A stretch of 64,000 bases of DNA from Candidatus Limnocylindrales bacterium (GCA_038915815.1 JBCLCL010000006.1:279-64278); one strand, 5' to 3'; counted from the first letter of the stretch, positions 12,721 to 40,295 are shown. The notes: generated from the letters alone by a model not told the origin. Translations and numbers: made by a program.

Positions 12721-14108
12721 GTGAGCCGCCCGAGGGCACCACCGAACCACGGTCGATGCGAGCCCCGCGGCCGCGCGCCGTCCTCCTCGTCGCCAACACC
12801 GCCGCGCCTTATTCCCGGGGGCTGCGCGTCGCCCGTAGCCTGGCCGATGCCGGCTGGGAGGTCGAGACCGCGGCCGTCGCCGGCGATGGCGCGCCTCGAG
12901 AGGAACGGGACGGCGACGTCGTCACCTGCCGGTACGTCCCCAGCGGACCGTTCAGGCGCTGGATCGGCCAGCCACCCCCGCCGCGCCCACGCTCGAAACC
13001 GCTCAGGATCCTCGCGCTGAACGCCGACAAGGCGCTCAAGGTCGCGCTCTGGCCGCTCCACGTGCGCGCCTGGTGGCGAACGCTCCGCCGCCAGCTCCCC
13101 CCTGCCGACCTCTACCACGCCTTCGGGATCCTGACCCTGCCCGTCGCCCTCGACCTCGCTGGGGCGGCGCGACGCGCTGGTCGGCGCGGCCTCGTCGTCT
13201 ACGACGTGATCGATGCCATCCTCGATTCGAACAACTACCAGAACGTGCCCGGGCCGGTCCTCGCGCGCTACCGACGCAAGGAGGCCGGCTGGGTCCGTCG
13301 CGCCGATGCGGTCGTGACCGTCAACGACGCGCTGGCCGATCACTGTCGGCGTCTCTGGCCCTTTCGCGAGCGCCCGACGGTCCTGCTCAATGGCCAGCCG
13401 CGCTGGACCCCGCCGGACGAGCGGCCGAACCTGATTCGCGAGGCGACCGGGCTCCCGGCCGAGCGCCGGATCGTCCTCTTCCTCGGCAGGCTCGGGCGCC
13501 AACGCGGGCTTGAGACGGCGGCCGAGGCGGTCGTTCGCCTGAAAGACGCTGCGCTGGTGATGCTCGGGGCGAGCGTGAATCCGGAGTGGGATGCGGCGCT
13601 GGAGGCCCGCTCGAACGATCCGCGCTTCCTTGGCCGGCACGTCGTCCTGCCGCCGGTCCACCCGGACGAGGTCCGGCCATGGGCCGCGTCCGCGGACGTC
13701 TCGATCATCGCCGTTCCGGCCACCTCGCTCAACCAGCGCCTCTCGACCCCGAACAAGTTCTGGGAGAGCCTGGCGGCGGGCACGCCGGTGGTGATCGGGC
13801 GCGACCTCGAGGTCATGCGCGCGATCGTCGGACAGGATCGACTGGGCGCGGTGGCGGATCCCGCGGACCCCGACGACCTGGCCCGGGCGCTGCGCGAGAT
13901 CCTCGAGCAGTCTGCGAGCGACTACGCGGCCATGCGCGAGCGCTGCCTCACGGTCTCGCGTGATCGGTACGCCTGGGAGACGGCGGTCGGGCCGTATCTC
14001 GCGCTCGTGGCGCGACTGGCCACCGGTCCCGGAGATGCCGGTTCAGCCCGGGGCGGTCGAGCCGCTCACGTGCCCGGTCGGCCGGCGGAAGAGGACGATC
14101 TTGCTTGA
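12717..14108 (+). CDS. Family 4 glycosyltransferase
   Basis: GTG 12717 overlaps the upstream stop (GTGA); ATG 12756 is an alternative start. Contains AVLLVANTAAPYSRGLRVARSLADAGWEV and NKFWESLAAGTPVV. Confidence 0.8.
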   Translation: MSEPPEGTTEPRSMRAPRPRAVLLVANTAAPYSRGLRVARSLADAGWEVETAAVAGDGAPREERDGDVVTCRYVPSGPFRRWIGQPPPPRPRSKPLRILALNADKALKVALWPLHVRAWWRTLRRQLPPADLYHAFGILTLPVALDLAGAARRAGRRGLVVYDVIDAILDSNNYQNVPGPVLARYRRKEAGWVRRADAVVTVNDALADHCRRLWPFRERPTVLLNGQPRWTPPDERPNLIREATGLPAERRIVLFLGRLGRQRGLETAAEAVVRLKDAALVMLGASVNPEWDAALEARSNDPRFLGRHVVLPPVHPDEVRPWAASADVSIIAVPATSLNQRLSTPNKFWESLAAGTPVVIGRDLEVMRAIVGQDRLGAVADPADPDDLARALREILEQSASDYAAMRERCLTVSRDRYAWETAVGPYLALVARLATGPGDAGSARGGRAAHVPGRPAEEDDLA

Positions 14109-14900
14109 CGGAGCTGCGCCGCGGGCCAGCGCCACGCGATCTAGGGTCAGCATCAGCGGACCGAGCCAGTGGATGCTCGTGGGCGACGACTTCGCCCGGC
14201 GGGCGACCCAGCGCCACCAGCGGAGGTAGCGGTCATATGCGGCGCGCGAGCCGGCCTCGATCGGATTGTTCGCCATGGCCAGCGCGCCCCGCAGCTCGAC
14301 GAGCTCCAGGCCGGCGGCGAGGAGTGGATCGCGATAGGCGGCCAGCGCCCGGGCGCGCGAGGTCTGCGTCTCGGTGGGTGGGCGTTCGTAGGTGGCATCC
14401 AGCAGGATCGGCTCCACCAGGAGGAGCGATCCGCCCGGCCCGACCAGCCCGGCGATGTTCGTGAGTGCCCGCCGGAATGCCGCGTCGTCCGTGAGGTGGA
14501 GGAGGACGTTCATCACCGACACGAGACCGTACGGTCCGACCGGCAGGCCCGCGTCGGGCGCCCCGATGTCGGCGGCCACGAATCGGTCGCCGCGCGAGCC
14601 GAACTCGGCCCCGAGCCGCTCGACCGCCGCGGGGACGAGGTCGCAGCCGTCGACCCGAGCCACCCCGAGGTCGTGCCAGACCCGGGCCCAGTAGCCGGTT
14701 CCCGAGCCGACATCGAAGGCCGTCTCCACGCCCTGGAGCGCTTGGTGCCGGCGAACGAACCAGCGGACGCGCCGTTCGAGGGCCCGGTAGAGCCAGCCGT
14801 TCAGGTCGGCGGGCAGGCCGGACTGGCCGACGCTGGACAGATCGCCGCGGGCGTGGAGTCGTGCCCAGTGATCGCGCGGGTCGTAGAACATGGTCGCCAT
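14043..14900 (-). CDS. Class I SAM-dependent methyltransferase
   Basis: Has SAM-binding motif I (AFDVGSGTGYWARVW) and a post-I acidic residue (VDGCDL). ATG 14900 (MATMFYDPRDHW) is preferred over the ORF-track start at 14963. Confidence 0.8.
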   Translation of the reverse strand: MATMFYDPRDHWARLHARGDLSSVGQSGLPADLNGWLYRALERRVRWFVRRHQALQGVETAFDVGSGTGYWARVWHDLGVARVDGCDLVPAAVERLGAEFGSRGDRFVAADIGAPDAGLPVGPYGLVSVMNVLLHLTDDAAFRRALTNIAGLVGPGGSLLLVEPILLDATYERPPTETQTSRARALAAYRDPLLAAGLELVELRGALAMANNPIEAGSRAAYDRYLRWWRWVARRAKSSPTSIHWLGPLMLTLDRVALARGAAPSSKIVLFRRPTGHVSGSTAPG

Positions 14901-14989
14901 GGTGGCACACGGGCCGGGCGGTTCGAGCGTGGGGCGGCGGCGCCTGGCCGCCCCAGTGGTCACTCCTGGTGGTCACTCCTGGTGGGCCC

Positions 14990-15183
14990 GTTCTTCGGGG
15001 AAGGACAAAACCCGTGTCTTGGCGTCTGGCGGGCCTGGATCCTGCACTGCGCTGGGCGTATGACCCAAGGGACGTGGGTGAAGTGGCCAGATCTGCGTTG
15101 TCGGCGCGTCCCTTGTGGACCAAGGAACCCTCGAATGGACGATGCGCCGCCCGATTCGCGCGGTTTGTTCTCCCATGAAGAAC
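14990..15183. other. 194-bp intergenic element bounded by inverted AT-rich 18-nt motifs (copy A)
   Basis: The left end is GTTCTTC-GGGGA-AGGACA (14990-15007). The right end is TGTTCT-CCCAT-GAAGAAC (15166-15183). The same end architecture recurs at 36405-36608. Confidence 0.6.
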
Positions 15184-15205: not shown

Positions 15206-17044
15206 TTACTGTCGCGCGCCCATCTCAGCGTCCCAGCGATCGGCTAGCCAGCGGAGGGCGCCCGGAGCGAGGCGGATGCCCCTCCCGGCGAGGCGCGCGA
15301 TGAGCACCGCGGCCGGGGCGTCGAGGGCGACCAGCTCGACCGGCCCGACCGGCCCGACCGGCTCGACCGGCTCGACCGGCTCGCCCTTCGTTCTGGCGTC
15401 ACGGGCCGCAGCCAGCATGGCTTCGAGCAGCAGCTGCTCTCCGGCAGGAGCGGGCCGATCCAGGGCGCGCTGGAGCCGGGCGAGCGGACCCCGCCCACGC
15501 GGTCGCGGCTTCGGCGGCGGCACGCGAGCCGCCTCGTTCAGCCGGACCGGCCATTCGGTGTTGGGAGCTTCGGTGGCGCCCTCCTGCCACGCTGGAACGA
15601 CGAGCAAGAGGCGCGCCCGGAGATCGGCCGGGAGTTGGGCGACGAGGGGCAGGGCGTGGTCACGGCCGGTCGCCACCAGCACACGCGGCAGGCTGGAGGT
15701 CAGGGCGGAACCTGTCGCCGCGGGCGCGGTCGGGCGCTCGGCGCCGGGACCTGGCGCCCCACCCGTGACCCCGCTCGGATCGACCGTCGCCACGTCCGTC
15801 GCGGCGCTATCGGCCATCGCTCGCCGATAGATCTCCAGCGCCTGGCCGGCCACCGCCGCCTCGCCGACCGCGTGGACGAGCCGATCCCGCGCCGTGGCCG
15901 CGTCCAGTGGGACCGCCCCGGCAAGGAGAGCCTCGATGGCACTGGCGAACGCGTCGGCGTCGTTGCCATCGGCCACACTCCCGTACCCACCAGACAACCC
16001 GATGATCCATGGCACGCCGCCCGATCGCCGGGCGGCGACCGGCAGTCCGGTCAGGATCGCCTCCGCTGCGGCGACCCCGAACGTCTCGGATGGGCTCGGG
16101 TGGACGAGGACGGCCGCTCGCCCCATGGCCGCGGCCACGCCATCGCGGCCGAGCCAACCATCGAAGACGACCGCGCCGGCGACGCCCAGCTCGGCGGCCA
16201 GCGCCTCCCACCTTGCGCGTTCGCCGGCGGTCCGCTCGCGACCCACGAGGCGGAGTCGGAGGGTGGCTCTCGAAGCCTGCGATCGGGCGAATGCCCGGAG
16301 CAGGACGTCGATGCCCTTGTGCTCGCCGAGCGACCCGACCCAGAGCAGTTCGTCGGGATCCCGGCCGGCGGGATCGGCTAGCGGGAACGCCATGTCGGGG
16401 ACCGGGTTTGGCAGCACACCGATCCGGTCGGCAGGAACGCCAAGGAGCATCGCCAGGCGACCGGAGAGGGAGGGACTGACCCCGACCAACCGGACGCCCG
16501 GCCTCAGCAGGCCGCGATAGCACTCGAGCGCGACCGGGTCTGCCAGCTCGGTCTCGATCGTGCTCATGTGTTCGGTCACGACGACCGGGATCCCGAACTC
16601 CTGCCCGATCTCCGCGGCGACGATCCCGTCGGGCAGGCCGGTGTGGGCGTGGATCACGTCCGGACGCCACTCCTCGACGAGGCGCCCAACGAACGGTCGC
16701 AGCGCAGCCAGGTGGTCCTCGACCAACGCCGCTGGGTCGCCCGAACCCGGTCGGCGGACGACGGGGATACGCGCGACCGGCACGCCGGGAGCCCCGCGCG
16801 AGCGCGGTGTCGTGAAGAGCGCAGCCGGGGATGCGACCTGCTCGTACGCCACCCGGGCGGCCAGCAGCGCCGCATCGCGCTCCTCCAGGCGACCCCGGAC
16901 CAGCACGCGATCGAACGAAACGACCCGGGCCTCGACACCCGCCGCGACCGTGGCCGCCACGAGGTCGGCCACGAACGAGCCGCGCCCCGGCGAGTCATGC
17001 GACGGATACCAGCGGGCGACCGTCAGGACGCGCAGGGTTGGCAA
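15206..17044 (-). CDS. Family 4 glycosyltransferase with a roughly 200-aa C-terminal extension of unknown function
   Basis: The N-terminal 400 aa or so are GT4-like (LRVLTVARWYPSHDSPGRGSFV..., HPSPSETFGVAAAEAILTGLPV). The C-terminal part matches no motif I recognise and contains an EPV/GPV repeat. Confidence 0.8.
   Translation of the reverse strand: MPTLRVLTVARWYPSHDSPGRGSFVADLVAATVAAGVEARVVSFDRVLVRGRLEERDAALLAARVAYEQVASPAALFTTPRSRGAPGVPVARIPVVRRPGSGDPAALVEDHLAALRPFVGRLVEEWRPDVIHAHTGLPDGIVAAEIGQEFGIPVVVTEHMSTIETELADPVALECYRGLLRPGVRLVGVSPSLSGRLAMLLGVPADRIGVLPNPVPDMAFPLADPAGRDPDELLWVGSLGEHKGIDVLLRAFARSQASRATLRLRLVGRERTAGERARWEALAAELGVAGAVVFDGWLGRDGVAAAMGRAAVLVHPSPSETFGVAAAEAILTGLPVAARRSGGVPWIIGLSGGYGSVADGNDADAFASAIEALLAGAVPLDAATARDRLVHAVGEAAVAGQALEIYRRAMADSAATDVATVDPSGVTGGAPGPGAERPTAPAATGSALTSSLPRVLVATGRDHALPLVAQLPADLRARLLLVVPAWQEGATEAPNTEWPVRLNEAARVPPPKPRPRGRGPLARLQRALDRPAPAGEQLLLEAMLAAARDARTKGEPVEPVEPVGPVGPVELVALDAPAAVLIARLAGRGIRLAPGALRWLADRWDAEMGARQ
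15335..15379. repeat. 9-bp tandem repeat x5 (cYcgaccgg) inside the GT4 C-terminal extension
   Basis: The sequence is ctcgaccgg cccgaccgg cccgaccgg ctcgaccgg ctcgaccgg. It encodes (E/G)PV repeats on the minus strand. Confidence 0.9.
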
Positions 17045-35297: not shown

Positions 35298-35374
35298 CGG
35301 GGAGTAGCGTAGCCTGGTAACGCACGTGCTTTGGGAGCACGAGATCGTGGGTTCGAATCCCGCCTCCCCGACCA
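35298..35374 (+). tRNA. tRNA-Pro (anticodon UGG)
   Basis: Hand-folded cloverleaf: acceptor CGGGGAG/CTCCCCG, D stem GCGT/ACGC, anticodon stem CGTGC/GCACG with loop TTTGGGA, T arm GTGGG-TTCGAAT-CCCGC, and an encoded CCA. Confidence 0.9.
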
Positions 35375-35824: not shown

Positions 35825-36241
35825 ATGCCCGGCGAACCGACCGTTCGCGAGATGCGTGTCGTCGTCACGGCGACTGACTACGTCGAAGCCGTCCACTTCT
35901 ACCGCGACGTGCTGGGTCTTCCCGAACTGGCCGATTACTCTTCCGCGGACGGACGGGTCGTGCTCCTCGGCGCAGGGCGCGCCACCCTCGAGATCGTCGA
36001 TCCCGCGCAGGCCGAGTACATCGATCGGGTGGAGGTCGGTCGGCGGGTGGCGGGGCACATCAGGGTCGCCCTTGAAGTGGCCGACTCGGCCGCGACGTCT
36101 CGACTGCTGGCTGCCGATGGCGCCATGCTGCTGGCCGACGCCACCCTGACGCCGTGGCAGTCCGTCAACGCACGCCTGGAAGCTCCGGCGGGGCTCCAGC
36201 TCACACTCTTCACCGAAGCCTCGGCCGTCTTGCCGGACTGA
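35825..36241 (+). CDS. VOC (glyoxalase/bleomycin-resistance/dioxygenase) family protein
   Basis: The sequence VVVTATDYVEAVHFYRDVLGL...ATLEIVD...IRVALEV shows the typical paired beta-alpha-beta-beta-beta module pattern. ATG 35825 is preferred. Confidence 0.65.
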   Translation: MPGEPTVREMRVVVTATDYVEAVHFYRDVLGLPELADYSSADGRVVLLGAGRATLEIVDPAQAEYIDRVEVGRRVAGHIRVALEVADSAATSRLLAADGAMLLADATLTPWQSVNARLEAPAGLQLTLFTEASAVLPD

Positions 36242-36404: not shown

Positions 36405-36608
36405 GTTCTTCCCAGCAGGACAAACGCGCGATTCGCCACGCTCGAGGGTGGCCGGCAGGGCGCGAACCGCTCATCGCGCGCCCATCTGGCCTCGTTTCGT
36501 GGTCAGGGGAGCGGTTTGCCAGCGTCGATCGGGGGTTTGGGAGCTCCTGCCGGCGTTCAGCAGCGTCCCAGTGCCCCGATCGACGTAGTCTGTTCTCCCG
36601 GGAAGAAC
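36405..36608. other. 204-bp intergenic element bounded by the same inverted AT-rich 18-nt motifs (copy B)
   Basis: The left end is GTTCTTC-CCAGC-AGGACA (36405-36422). The right end is TGTTCT-CCCGG-GAAGAAC (36591-36608). It lies in a 440-bp gap between convergent genes. Confidence 0.6.
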
Positions 36609-36684: not shown

Positions 36685-37121
36685 TCAGGCCACCGCCGAG
36701 ACGATCGAGACGACCGCAAAGCCCCCGATCGTGACTCCGGACGCGAGGTTGGTCCGCCGGATCCAGCTCGGCGTCACCCGCGTCCGCACGGCCGACACCG
36801 TGGACGTGAGCGGCACCCACCAGGCGCTCGAGCATGTGGCGAGCTTCGTGCCGTGTTCCAGGCCAGCCAGAGCAGGAAGATCCCACCAGCGAGGGCGAGG
36901 CCCTGGCGCGCATCCACCAGGACCTGGCTGATCGCCCCGAGCCCGAAGGCCGCGATCGCACCGTAGGTGGCATCGGCTGTCGCGACGCCCAGGCCGGACA
37001 CCAGCCCCACGATGCGACCCTCGGCCAGCGTCCTCCGGATGACGAGCAGGCTGATCGGACCGACGGCAGCGGCGATCGTGAAGCCGAGGATGAAGCCGCG
37101 AAGCGCGACCCCGGGATCCAT
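36685..37121 (-). pseudogene. LysE/RhtB-family amino-acid exporter, frameshifted and internally deleted
   Basis: The N-terminal frame (ATG 37121 after GGGAGGA) reads MDPGVALRGFILGFTIAAAVGPISLLVIRRTL...WLAWNTAR and is LysE-like, then runs into junk. The LysE-like C-terminus (WWVPL...GVTIGGFAVVSIVSAVA*) is in another frame ending at 36685. The total is about 145 codons, against roughly 200 expected for this family. Confidence 0.5.
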
Positions 37122-37263
37122 CGGTCCTCCCTCTGCAGGCATGGCGGGCGCCTTGTCGCCTGGGACTGGCCATGATCGACCCTCTCGGGTTACTCTCTCG
37201 TCACACAGCGTTCGGCGTGGTGCGGGTCGCCACCCACGCCGGCAAGGTCATCGAGGTACGCGC

Positions 37264-37620: not shown

Positions 37621-37697
37621 GGGGGAGTAGCTCAATCGGTCAGAGCGGCGGGCTTATATCCCGCTGGTTCCAGGTTCGAGTCCTGGCTCCCCTACCA
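37621..37697 (+). tRNA. tRNA with anticodon UAU (tRNA-Ile reading AUA)
   Basis: Hand-folded cloverleaf: acceptor GGGGGAG/CTCCCCT (G1-U72), D stem GCTC/GAGC, anticodon stem GCGGG/CCCGC with loop CTTATAT (positions 34-36 = TAT, A37), T arm CCAGG-TTCGAGT-CCTGG, and an encoded CCA. Confidence 0.8.
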
Positions 37698-37828: not shown

Positions 37829-39352
37829 GTGCTGGTCACCATGGGAGACAGGCGAGGGAGGCGAGGCGCATCGTCGTGGGCCAGGGCCGTGGCCGCCGCC
37901 GCGTTCCTGCTCCTGACCCTGGCCCTGCCCGTGGCTGCCACCAGCGGCCCGAACCGGCTCTTCGACCCTGCCGTTTCCCCGCGAACCGGCACGACCACGA
38001 CCGCGATCACCGCTGTCATCTGGTATCGCAGCGCGGACGCCTCCGAAGCCGACTGGGTCCGCGTCAGCTTCGATGGCGTGTCATATGAGATGACGGCCCA
38101 GCCCGGGGGCACCTGGAAGGACGGGATCGAGTTCCGCTGGTCCGGGACCCTGGCAGTCGGTACGGGCGCCGTCGTCTTCTCAGCGCAAGGCCGCGACCAC
38201 TTCTTCGGGACCCTCGCCGCCGGGACGGTCTCGATCGTCGCGCCGACCCCGAGCCCGACCCCGACCCCCACCGTGATCGCGACGCCGGGGCCAACGCCCC
38301 AGGCCGGCGCCACGCCGACGGCGACCCCGAAGGGTCCGGCAGCGGCTGCGCCGACACCGCCCCCGACTGGTGGCCCCGCCGGTCCATCCACGTCCGACCC
38401 GAATGCCAGCCCGTCGGCCGCCGGCACCACCGCGGTCCCCGGACAGCCGGCTCCGGGCGACTCGCCCGTGACGTCCGTGCCCGGCTCCACCGGCGACACA
38501 GACAGCGACACGTCCGTGACGGCAGTGACCGGATCCACCGGCGGCACCGGATCCACCGGATCCACCGGCGGCAGCGGACCCGATGGTCCGTCAGACAGCC
38601 CGACCGGCAGCCCGGACTCGACTGGTTGGGGCCCGGGCGGCGGTCACACGACCTGGGGCCCGCTCACGAGCGCCCTGTCAGCCCTCGGGATCAACGGCCC
38701 ATCGTTCGGCGGACTGAGCATGGGGCCGATGCTCGTCACCTCCACCGGCGCCGTCGCCATGGCGATGGCCTTCGGGATCTTCGGCAAGCGTCGTCGCGAC
38801 GGTGAGCCGCCAGCCCCCGACGTTCTGCTGGCCGCCGCCGCCGCCGCACGTGTCGCGGTCAAGGAGATCCTCGTCGCGCCCGACACGGTCGAAGATCTCG
38901 AGGCGGCGATGCCGCGCTGGCGCAGGCCCTCGCTGATCCAGGCTCGCAAGGCCGACCCGATCCGGGACACCACCCCGACACCGCGGCTTGCCTTCGATCA
39001 GGCGCTGGTCGGTCCACTCGACGGCCACGTCCGTCGTCTGATCCGGTATCGCGTGGTTCGCCTGCTGGACGCACCCGATGAGCTGCGCGGCAGGGAGACC
39101 GGCTATCTCGACCGGGACGACGAGGTCGAGCTGCTCGAGAAGCACGGCGCCTACTGGCTGGTCCACTGCCCGGACGGACGGCAGGGCTGGGTCCACAACA
39201 TGACCCTCGGCGAGGTCGTCGGGCAGCAGGTCCAGCGCGACGGGCCGGTGGCAACGATGCCCATCGCGGCCGAGACCTGGACGATGGGCGACTCGGACGC
39301 CGATACCGATGTCTTCGAGGCCTACCTGGAGTCGCGCCGCCGGGCTACCTGA
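37829..39352 (+). CDS. Single-pass membrane protein: secreted Ig-like N-domain, Pro/Thr/Gly-rich linker, TM segment, cytoplasmic SH3-like C-terminus
   Basis: Has a signal peptide (AAAAFLLLTLALPVAA), a PTPSPTPTPT linker and TGSTGGTGSTGSTGG repeats, a TM segment (GAVAMAMAFGIFGKRRRD), and a C-terminal EVELLEKHGAYWLVHCPDGRQGWVHNMTL that resembles bacterial SH3. Confidence 0.6.
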   Translation: MLVTMGDRRGRRGASSWARAVAAAAFLLLTLALPVAATSGPNRLFDPAVSPRTGTTTTAITAVIWYRSADASEADWVRVSFDGVSYEMTAQPGGTWKDGIEFRWSGTLAVGTGAVVFSAQGRDHFFGTLAAGTVSIVAPTPSPTPTPTVIATPGPTPQAGATPTATPKGPAAAAPTPPPTGGPAGPSTSDPNASPSAAGTTAVPGQPAPGDSPVTSVPGSTGDTDSDTSVTAVTGSTGGTGSTGSTGGSGPDGPSDSPTGSPDSTGWGPGGGHTTWGPLTSALSALGINGPSFGGLSMGPMLVTSTGAVAMAMAFGIFGKRRRDGEPPAPDVLLAAAAAARVAVKEILVAPDTVEDLEAAMPRWRRPSLIQARKADPIRDTTPTPRLAFDQALVGPLDGHVRRLIRYRVVRLLDAPDELRGRETGYLDRDDEVELLEKHGAYWLVHCPDGRQGWVHNMTLGEVVGQQVQRDGPVATMPIAAETWTMGDSDADTDVFEAYLESRRRAT

Positions 39353-40269
39353 CGTCCCGGCGCTTCCTTGCGCAGCACGAGGACGTGCTGGTGGACGATG
39401 TTCGGGACGAACGCCCGCGGATACCCATATGGCCGCAGCCGTGTCCCGGCCTGATACCAGATCAGGTCGCCCTTGGGGACGAAGCCGACCGTCGCCGCGC
39501 GGCCGGCCAGGTCGGACCCGGTGAAGATGTAGCGCCCACCCTGGTAGGCGTCGCGCACGATGACCACGGCATAGCCACCGTCGCGCAGGATGCGGTAGAG
39601 CTCCGCGAAGACGAGCCCCATCCGGTCCAGGAAGGCCGGGTAGTCGGCGGCATTGGCGAGGTCGTCCGCCGAATCGGTGACCATCGCATAGTCCGTCCTC
39701 CGGTTGGCATGCGCCTCGGCGAGCGCTCCCCCGGCCATCGTCATCGGCAGCTGGAGGTTGTAGGGCGGGTCCGTTGCCACCATGTCCACCGATCCGGCCT
39801 CCAGGCGAGGAAGCAGGGCCGACGCATCGCCCACCCGGAGTTCGAGCCCTGCCGGGTCGAATCCCCGAGGACCTCCGGGATCCGCGCTGCCCAGATCGAC
39901 CAGCTCGGGACCCAGTCCGCCCCGTTCGGCGGCCAGCTCGCCGACGACCCGCTGGTAGACCGCAGCCCAGCGCGGATCGAGCTCGATGCCGATGGCACGT
40001 CGCGGGCCGCGCGCGATCGCCGCTCCCAGCAGGGTTCCGCCGACGCCCGCGAACGGGTCGAGTACCAGCTCGCCCGACCGGCTGAAGAACTCGATCAGGC
40101 GCGCCATCAGCCGGGGCGGCTTGTTCGCGCCATGGGCTTTCCGGGCAGCGTGCCCGAGCTCCGACGGATAGGCCGTCGTCAGGAGCGACTTCGTGAAGTA
40201 GAGCCACTCGTCGCCAGGCAGCTCGTTCAGGGTGTTGGCGGGGTGGGGAGGTCGTCGGTCGTCGGTCAT
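39322..40269 (-). CDS. N6-adenine/N4-cytosine DNA methyltransferase (PF01555-like) with permuted motif order; no cognate nuclease nearby
   Basis: ATG 40269. The AdoMet motif KPPRLMARLIEFFSRSGELVLDPFAGVGGT (aa 50-79) precedes the catalytic DPPY (VATDPPYN, aa 167-170). Only the C-terminal 315 aa of the 1186-aa ORF-track entry look real. Confidence 0.8.
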   Translation of the reverse strand: MTDDRRPPHPANTLNELPGDEWLYFTKSLLTTAYPSELGHAARKAHGANKPPRLMARLIEFFSRSGELVLDPFAGVGGTLLGAAIARGPRRAIGIELDPRWAAVYQRVVGELAAERGGLGPELVDLGSADPGGPRGFDPAGLELRVGDASALLPRLEAGSVDMVATDPPYNLQLPMTMAGGALAEAHANRRTDYAMVTDSADDLANAADYPAFLDRMGLVFAELYRILRDGGYAVVIVRDAYQGGRYIFTGSDLAGRAATVGFVPKGDLIWYQAGTRLRPYGYPRAFVPNIVHQHVLVLRKEAPGRQVARRRDSR

Positions 40270-40295
40270 CAGCGAGCAGCCTAGCCCAGCGGGTC

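Follow-up and report, generated by a model that had tools for sequence, protein, structure and literature searches.

Paired palindromes an integral number of helical turns apart bound a family of intergenic elements in Limnocylindria: candidates for protein-closed DNA loops

Repetitive extragenic palindromic (REP) sequences, bacterial interspersed mosaic elements (BIMEs, including the IHF-containing RIB/RIP type) and REPINs are dispersed, short and intergenic, and consist of inverted pairs of palindromic units. They often lie at the 3' ends of genes, have a protein-bent centre and are bound by IHF and gyrase, while their hallmark is a RAYT (IS200/IS605-like TnpA) gene in a genome with hundreds of copies. 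In the operator pairs that close DNA loops, i.e., lac O1-O3, gal OE-OI with HU, araO2-I1 and deo, palindromic sites for dimeric proteins are placed integral turns apart, and activity is sensitive to helical phase when the sites are less than about 200 bp apart. A third relevant case is that of the internal eliminated sequences (IESs) of the ciliate Paramecium, in which conservation is confined to the ends, the interiors bear no relation to one another and the lengths show a period equal to the helical repeat (PMC3464196). Here we describe a family of elements that resembles each of these in part, two copies of which, element A (14990..15183, 194 bp) and element B (36405..36608, 204 bp), lie in a 64,000-nucleotide stretch of Candidatus Limnocylindrales bacterium (GCA_038915815.1, JBCLCL010000006.1:279-64278; hereafter the window). 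By our comparison REP/BIME with an IHF bend and the operator-pair loops appear closest in kind, and the ciliate IESs closest in pattern. The full set of features, namely palindromic ends as the only conserved sequence, unrelated interiors, lengths in helical turns and a phase-locked, putative bending code, is found in none of the compared systems. We give about even chances to the reading that the element acts as double-stranded DNA, in which a dimeric protein bound at the end sites bridges or wraps about 180 bp of anisotropically bendable DNA.

The pattern TGTYCT-N5-GAAGAAC was found at four places in the 64 kb of the window, all of them ends of A and B, where chance alone would give 0.02; two extra hits correspond to the right-hand palindromes seen from the opposite strand. 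The end sequences of B and the second locus at 14990-15183, both reported in the initial annotation, were read out identically base by base, and its remark that the interiors of A and B are unlike is also borne out, as no alignment between them was found. For the detection of further copies a paired-end pattern was used, with spacers and interior left free and the ends exact, covering total lengths of 184-216 bp overall. Scanning of species-representative (GTDB) genomes with gaps of 148-178 returned 4 loci, three in metagenome-assembled genomes of Chloroflexota/Limnocylindria and one in a 1.6-kb contig binned as Thermoanaerobaculia, while scanning of JGI metagenomes with gaps of 150-180 returned 14 loci. 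Five of these are not independent: L015 equals L002, whereas L017, L008 and L018 correspond closely to L006, L007 and L013, respectively, and L001 to element B. With duplicates and orthologues removed there are 15 independent loci, 13 of them beyond A and B, and their hosts belong in or near Limnocylindria (Chloroflexota).

The end sites come in pairs. All 16 of 16 site pairs examined were paired, and no solitary site scoring above 12 bits was present in about 350 kb of Chloroflexota DNA. A single-site scan of viral contigs, serving as negative control, gave 72 solitary matches in low-GC contigs and 0 pairs; these have the look of chance matches, and since they were all solitary and of low GC, chance single sites do not pair up. 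Every copy is intergenic and almost fills its gap. Where their arrangement could be assigned, the flanking genes are convergent at 4 loci, in tandem at 5 and divergent at 1, and they are unrelated housekeeping genes; no transposase, recombinase or obvious regulator gene was found beside the elements, either in the window or among the neighbours of the other loci. No further copies were found in about 175 kb from related genomes, so that the family is limited to part of the lineage and has a modest copy number. A search of the literature on the motif, on phased inverted-repeat elements and on Limnocylindria repeats found no account of such a family.

The weight matrix built from the 30 end sites reads Y-GTTCTTC-VNRGV-AGRACA-RA-H-C, with 16 positions invariant or near-invariant. 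In short form, GTTCTTC-NNNGN-AGRACA-AA stands inverted at the two ends of both A and B. Each end is a 17-bp imperfect palindrome, GTTCTTC-NNN-GNAGRAC, in which the invariant C7 and G11 (27 of 30 sites) are symmetric partners. The two palindromes of an element are mirror-oriented, with the dyad at position 9, and this form, usual for the site of a homodimeric sequence-specific DNA-binding protein, leads us to infer that the ends are such sites. The dyads are 176-177, 187-190 or 197-199 bp apart, which amounts to 17, 18 and 19 turns if one turn takes 10.4-10.5 bp, so that both palindromes of an element lie on the same face of the helix. Of the sites with which the palindrome was compared, namely DnaA boxes, parS, LexA/Cheo boxes, Rex, and PhoP/GlnR boxes, none fits. 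The attC site of integrons was also rejected, as the ends GTTCTTC ... GAAGAAC are opposite to RYYYAAC ... GTTRRRY, the length is about 200 bp and there is no covariation in the stem.

The lengths of the 15 elements fall into three classes about one helical turn apart, namely 193-194 bp (193, 194, 194), 204-207 bp (204, 204, 204, 205, 205, 206, 207) and 214-216 bp (214, 215, 215, 216, 216), whereas lengths of 195-203 and 208-213 bp are avoided within the searched range (Rayleigh p ~1.5e-5 at 10.5-11 bp). Helical-phase dependence is thus observed, as an evolutionary pattern only. The interiors of independent loci share no homology, with local alignment scores of at most 25 of about 165, compared to 40-165 for orthologues and duplicates. 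What they do share is the placement of A/T. Counted from the end, interior A/T positions are coherent among elements with a period of 10.55 bp (half-maximum 10.3-10.85); nR2 was 25.6, while 2000 shuffles, at whatever period, did not go beyond 9.7 and genomic windows chosen at random gave at most 5.9. At z >= 1.5, 12 of the 15 elements contribute. In each helical turn from the 2nd to the 9th, from either end, the A/T fraction is 0.47 in phase vs 0.17 in antiphase, G/C-rich positions falling in antiphase to the A/T lattice. The averaged A/T profile peaks 19, 29, 40, 50, 60, 71, 82, and 92 bp from the end and is flat outside the ends. The interiors carry no period-3 signal, indicating that they are not coding.

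One motif recurs on the lattice. GAWTC (GATTC or GAATC) is enriched 11-fold within the elements (p = 4e-16), is present in 14 of 15, and has its centres on the A/T lattice (R = 0.81, p ~5e-7). Of all N-WWW-N pentamers, 42% within the elements and 9.8% outside are GAWTC, which is therefore a motif in its own right; with GAWTC masked the phasing remains (nR2 = 11.8). The lattice phase of 8.1-8.3 coincides with the dyad of the palindrome at position 9. Given that the total length is about 5 mod 10.5, the lattices counted from the left and from the right coincide, which ties the length classes to the phasing. Both length classes and phasing are common to the whole family.

Phased A/T positions are normally read as narrowing of the minor groove on the inside of a bend, and in the usual geometry of a helix-turn-helix dimer the central minor groove of the palindrome faces the protein. 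As the lattice is in register with that central minor groove, the protein would be expected on the concave side of the bend. A homodimeric protein would bind each of the two mirrored palindromes on the same face of the helix, and the bound proteins would either bridge or belong to one oligomeric core, with the intervening 165-185 bp or so bent into a tight loop or wrap around them. The A/T positions recurring every 10.5 bp, often as GAWTC, would then spell out a code for rotational bending that keeps step with the dyads at the ends, and GAWTC, where it lies in phase, may mark points at which bending is preferred or a second contact is made. The copies arrived as insertions in one Limnocylindria lineage, after which the ends were retained and the interior and flanks diverged to apparent saturation. 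That a protein binds, that the DNA loops or wraps, and that some role follows from it are all inferred from sequence; candidate roles are a barrier or insulator that separates genes with respect to transcription or supercoiling, or a synapse formed by a recombinase or transposase. A periodicity of length that equals the helical repeat is the accepted sign of protein-bound ends that have to meet over a short, stiff stretch of DNA, as known from helical-twist experiments, carried out with repressor loops, invertasomes and transposon ends, and from the ciliate IESs as a natural case (PMC3464196). A more specific version, which we hold only tentatively, is that these are sequence-encoded DNA micro-loops or wraps, in which a dedicated protein clamps palindromes 17-19 turns apart and the enclosed DNA is tuned for bending over its full length; copies would have spread among intergenic sites of one Chloroflexota lineage and been selected as chromatin-like elements, e.g., as barriers against transcriptional read-through or the diffusion of supercoils, with GAWTC possibly serving as secondary binding or methylation sites.

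The history of the two window sites could be followed in relatives. At site B the gene order is CSD - glyoxalase, element, convergent LysE gene. Element B is identical in GCA_038916155.1 (L019) and has an orthologue at L001:1518-1722, while in L021 and L026-L029 the site is empty and the two genes overlap or are 5-11 bp apart. Site A is empty in four relatives, L102-L105 (L105 being from the same genome as L001), in which the glycosyltransferase and methyltransferase genes overlap or are separated by 30-51 bp. In three sister assemblies element A is identical and in the same orientation. As A and B are missing from the orthologous sites of relatives, the copies are insertions. The DNA inserted at site A in the lineage of the window amounts to about 250 bp, i.e., 22 bp, the 194-bp element and about 37 bp. 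A different inverted-repeat element occupies B's site at L020:10444-10635 and L022:10560-10790, with about 192 bp between its outer arms; it holds several 17-bp palindromes CTTGCG-N5-CGCAAG and lacks the 10.5-bp A/T phasing, and thus belongs to another class of element. Insertions of palindromic DNA seem to favour the glyoxalase/LysE junction, which looks like a hot spot for them.

Two orthologous pairs allowed the ends to be compared with their surroundings. Between B and L001 the end sites are identical at 19/20 and 16/20 positions, compared to 58% for the interior and 49-57% for the flanks. Between L003 and L011, both located 3' of a DUF885 gene (88% protein identity), the corresponding figures are 16/20 and 17/20, 47%, and 37-50%. 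All end-site differences in both pairs fall at degenerate positions of the motif. The flanking non-coding DNA, at 37-57% identity in optimised alignments, is about as similar as unrelated GC-rich sequence and hence looks saturated, and this argues for purifying selection acting on the ends in place.

The initial annotation had favoured an RNA of about 200 nt, transcribed from the plus strand and closed by a long terminal stem. This reading, along with its counterpart of a hairpin or cruciform in single-stranded DNA, has in its favour that some 20 nt of one arm are complementary to the other, that element B folds more stably than its shuffles (z = -4.3) and that both window copies have G-U and not A-C on the plus strand. 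The asymmetry noted there, with AGGACA at the left end and TGTTCT at the right, is indeed present in both window elements; it is not conserved elsewhere, because the R/Y position at the two ends combines independently among the 15 elements (GG in 5, AA in 2, mixed in 8). The strand of the G-U pair is even reversed between orthologues, as L001, with the same orientation to its flanks as B, has AGAACA on the left and TGTCCT on the right, so that A and C face each other at the position of B's G-U pair. When 14 independent elements were scored, 72.3% of arm cells were paired vs 73.7% with shuffled partners, 432 of 500 shuffles being at least as high, and the covariation score was 0.135 vs 0.158 for shuffled arms. 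A per-position check likewise showed that, wherever the motif varies, the left arm matches the complement of its own right arm no more often than that of another element. The change at helix positions 8 and 9, proposed as partly compensatory, falls in spacer positions that are mostly unpaired over the same 14 elements. Element A is no more stable than its shuffles (z = -0.13). Neither 6S RNA (RF00013) nor any other Rfam family gave a match; with Rfam 15 the window yielded only two tRNAs at the gathering threshold, and only chance-level matches appeared at E <= 10. Complementarity of the flanks beyond the core was marginal on the outside (p = 0.048) and absent on the inside (p = 0.46), and was not retained. 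Intrinsic terminators at the ends were dismissed as well: one hairpin followed by GTTTGT was flagged, but the folding energy near the ends is the same as in interior windows, and the ends carry no consistent terminator-like hairpins. Finally, phasing at 10.5 bp and length steps of a helical turn are properties of double-stranded DNA with no rationale in a single strand. We therefore regard the RNA or single-stranded hairpin as very improbable. For the scanning of genomes in general, long-range complementarity of conserved ends need not mean an RNA helix, and tests of covariation and periodicity can discriminate.

A more serious competitor is an active or recently active, non-autonomous cut-and-paste transposon of the miniature inverted-repeat transposable element (MITE) kind, whose transposase would pair the terminal inverted repeats over a short loop, so that the length classes and the bendable interior would be what remains mobilisable, as for ciliate IESs. 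Like MITEs, the elements are non-coding, measure about 200 bp, carry terminal inverted repeats of about 20 bp in all copies at dispersed intergenic loci, and are present or absent at orthologous sites, as documented by A and B; the L003/L011 element lies where gene order differs; and length periodicity is known for looped transposon-derived elements and short bacterial transposons (PMC3464196). Against this, target-site duplications of 2-9 bp showed no excess over mismatched flank pairs at any boundary offset of 0-4 bp, independent copies share no interior, including the two in one genome, and in the loci examined (no whole genome) neither a parent element nor a pair of motifs 0.1-3 kb apart around a transposase gene was found. 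Furthermore, the insert at site A exceeds the repeat-bounded 194 bp, and the retention of both ends where nearby non-coding DNA has reached chance-level identity is unexpected for dead selfish copies. The initial annotation's alternative of an element conserved only at its termini consequently stands as a description, and the copies are insertions, while a plain MITE, lacking target-site duplications, interior homology and a transposase, does not; a transposon of this type seems to us unlikely, though the likeliest of the alternatives considered. An inverton, in which a site-specific recombinase would flip the interior of about 165 bp and thereby switch a promoter or terminator, is suggested by inverted repeats of about 20 bp around an intergenic segment of about 200 bp, by their shared consensus at several loci, by the two half-sites in each repeat, and by the position of element A, which lies upstream of one of the genes that form a polysaccharide glycosyltransferase cluster, such clusters being the classic setting of invertons (Bacteroides, fim systems). 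However, within an element the central spacers of the repeats resemble each other no more than they do across elements, so that an identical crossover core is not evident, and the interior kept the same orientation to its flanks in 5 orthologous or duplicate contig pairs and in 4 assemblies of the window's population. Convergent gene ends surround four loci, B and three others; in neither A nor B did a search return a sigma-70-like promoter, and no recombinase gene lies nearby. An inverton is accordingly improbable in our judgement, more so than a transposon.

The reading of a protein-closed DNA loop has its own difficulties. Element A lies within an operon whose co-directional genes are 0-51 bp apart in relatives, an awkward position for a strong barrier to transcription. 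With copy density low, and zero in about 175 kb of relatives, the element is not an essential general feature of the chromosome. Three of the 15 elements (L002, L009, and L013) show no phasing individually, and the copy at L011:1872-2076 is decaying. The argument from end conservation consists of two orthologue pairs, which were themselves found with the exact-end pattern; the same demand for exact ends skews the sample towards intact copies, and the length classes are known only within the searched totals of 184-216 bp. Moreover, nothing in the window or at the 15 loci suggests a candidate gene for the binding protein.

The elements also differ from the described systems. REP units form hairpins with compensatory changes, while the arms of the present elements show no such changes; the central motifs of BIMEs are conserved in sequence, while the interiors here are unrelated, and the end motif is also unrelated to REP/BIME. 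We know of no helical-turn length classes or 10.5-bp phasing described for REP/BIME. Compared to their hundreds of copies, the density here is 2 in the 64-kb window and 0 in the approximately 175 kb from relatives. Operator-pair loops are single regulatory loci at a promoter, whereas here there are at least 15 dispersed loci, several of them between convergent gene ends, no promoter was found in A or B and the whole loop is phased. The earlier argument that location speaks against a simple promoter or operator role applies to B but not to A, whose position is within an operon and shortly ahead of where a gene begins. The ciliate IESs are eukaryotic, bounded by TA, mostly shorter than 150 bp and removed by a domesticated transposase (PMC3464196). 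The present elements, unlike them, are bacterial and intergenic, show no TA or target duplication and no evidence of excision, and have a phased A/T pattern in the interior. Alternation of A/T and G/C at about 10.5 bp over more than 150 bp is also found in the nucleosome positioning code and in the arms of strong gyrase sites, but here the phased tract is delimited by two sequence-specific palindromes. In addition, the period of 10.55 bp (10.3-10.85) is more in keeping with near-planar bending than with a left-handed nucleosomal wrap, for which it would be 10.0-10.2 bp, and the conserved central cleavage motif of gyrase sites is lacking.

What is conserved in this family is geometry, consisting of mirrored palindromes in helical register together with a presumed bending code in DNA of otherwise free sequence, while REP, BIME, MITE, and Correia elements are usually defined by sequence or hairpins. 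The family may be regarded as a natural helical-twist experiment, and it predicts a specific nucleoprotein complex in an abundant, uncultured lineage of soil and freshwater. Should the loop or wrap be real, bacteria would carry positioned, protein-clamped DNA loops as dispersed elements, and the copies would provide a compact natural set of sequences for the energetics of tight DNA looping. If it exists as such, the micro-loop or wrap would represent a type of bacterial genome element that lacks a description so far.

The window has a G+C content of 70% and reads as ordinary chromosome, with a polysaccharide glycosyltransferase cluster and genes for RNase PH, MazG, transhydrogenase, and a LuxR-type regulator; megablast gave no match pointing to a plasmid or phage origin of the region. 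Element B is bounded by two inverted end sites. Its left edge (36405-36422) reads GTTCTTC-CCAGC-AGGACA and its right edge (36591-36608) TGTTCT-CCCGG-GAAGAAC. The left end site, GTTCTTCCCAGCAGGACAAA (36405..36424, plus strand), combines the imperfect palindrome of 17 bp, GTTCTTC-NNN-GNAGRAC, with an AAA towards the interior, and the right one (36589..36608, minus strand) reads GTTCTTCCCGGGAGAACAGA on that strand, with a weight-matrix score of 31.5 bits. The interior (36425..36588) has no homology to other copies and its A/T positions follow the 10.5-bp lattice of the family (z = 2.67 when projected on the common phase); it includes a GATTC, i.e., a GAWTC motif, at 36430..36434, the centre of which is on the lattice 28 bp from the left end.

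The placement of B between convergent gene ends, proposed at the outset, was confirmed, with a gap of 443 bp between the end of a plus-strand VOC/glyoxalase gene at 36241 and that of a minus-strand LysE-like gene at 36685. The former (35825..36241, Pfam PF00903) has its 3' end towards the element and is related to the 138-aa orthologues P0001 and related proteins. The LysE-type translocator gene on the right (36685..37173, minus strand, Pfam PF01810 match at 36774-37142) also points its 3' end towards the element. It appears to be frameshifted or truncated, judging from the frame with high GC3, which changes near 36800; a product of 115 aa is called in the near-identical L019, compared to 204-224 aa in relatives.

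Element A has inverted end sites at both edges, the left one, GTTCTTCGGGGAAGGACAAA, at 14990..15009 on the plus strand (36.0 bits) and the right one at 15164..15183 on the minus strand, where it reads GTTCTTCATGGGAGAACAAA (37.1 bits). A GATTC at 15153..15157 is on the lattice, its centre 29 bp from the right end. The element is placed within one operon, between a GT4 glycosyltransferase gene and an S-adenosylmethionine (SAM)-dependent methyltransferase gene, both on the minus strand. The stop codon of the former (15206..17044; the end is that of the open reading frame, the start not being fixed) is 22 bp from the element, which lies upstream of the latter (14043..14900), 89 bp from its start codon. 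At 14958-14983, 6 bp left of the end of A, a 13-bp sequence, GGTCACTCCTGGT, is duplicated in tandem (2 copies), and the three sister assemblies carry at the same flank a different duplicated 12-mer, CCACTGGGGCGG (2 copies, in opposite-strand notation). The flank to the left of element A is thus unstable, while the element itself is identical in the sister assemblies.

Additional repeats were observed around other copies. In L011, the element and its flank form a tandem duplicate with a unit of about 290 bp (1872-2076 and 2163-2366); the outer arms of the upstream copy are decaying (GTTCGCC, GTTCTCC), and one of its ends is an almost perfect 23-bp palindrome, TTTGTTCTCC-TGG-GGAGAACAAA. In L003, four tandem copies of a unit of about 17 bp, CCGCACGAACCGTCGTC, lie immediately next to the element, separating it from the DUF885 gene (2836-2900). 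The left neighbours of the two loci differ, encoding a DAO oxidoreductase in L003 but a class-III aminotransferase in L011, which places the element at a point where gene order differs.

Several minor observations concern the surroundings of the window copies. GAWTC occurs 66 times in the window vs about 53 expected from base composition and is therefore not depleted. A gene for a 316-aa N6/N4 DNA methyltransferase (PF01555) lies at 39328-40275 on the minus strand, 2.7 kb from element B; no restriction enzyme gene was noticed beside it, and no check was aimed at one. GANTC, of which GAWTC is a subset, is the site of CcrM/HinfI-type enzymes, which belong to the same family as this methyltransferase. 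Short tandem repeats with a 9-10-bp unit, CGACCGGCY, are present in the 3' part of the GT4 gene (window 15340-15390), and a similar repeat, GGAGGGCCCGACC, is found in an intergenic region at L022:10860-10915. Finally, element B is flanked at a distance of about 1 kb by two tRNA genes, tRNA-Pro (TGG) at 35298-35374 on the left and a tRNA-Ile at 37621-37697 on the right, the TAT anticodon of which seems unusual for a genome of 70% G+C.

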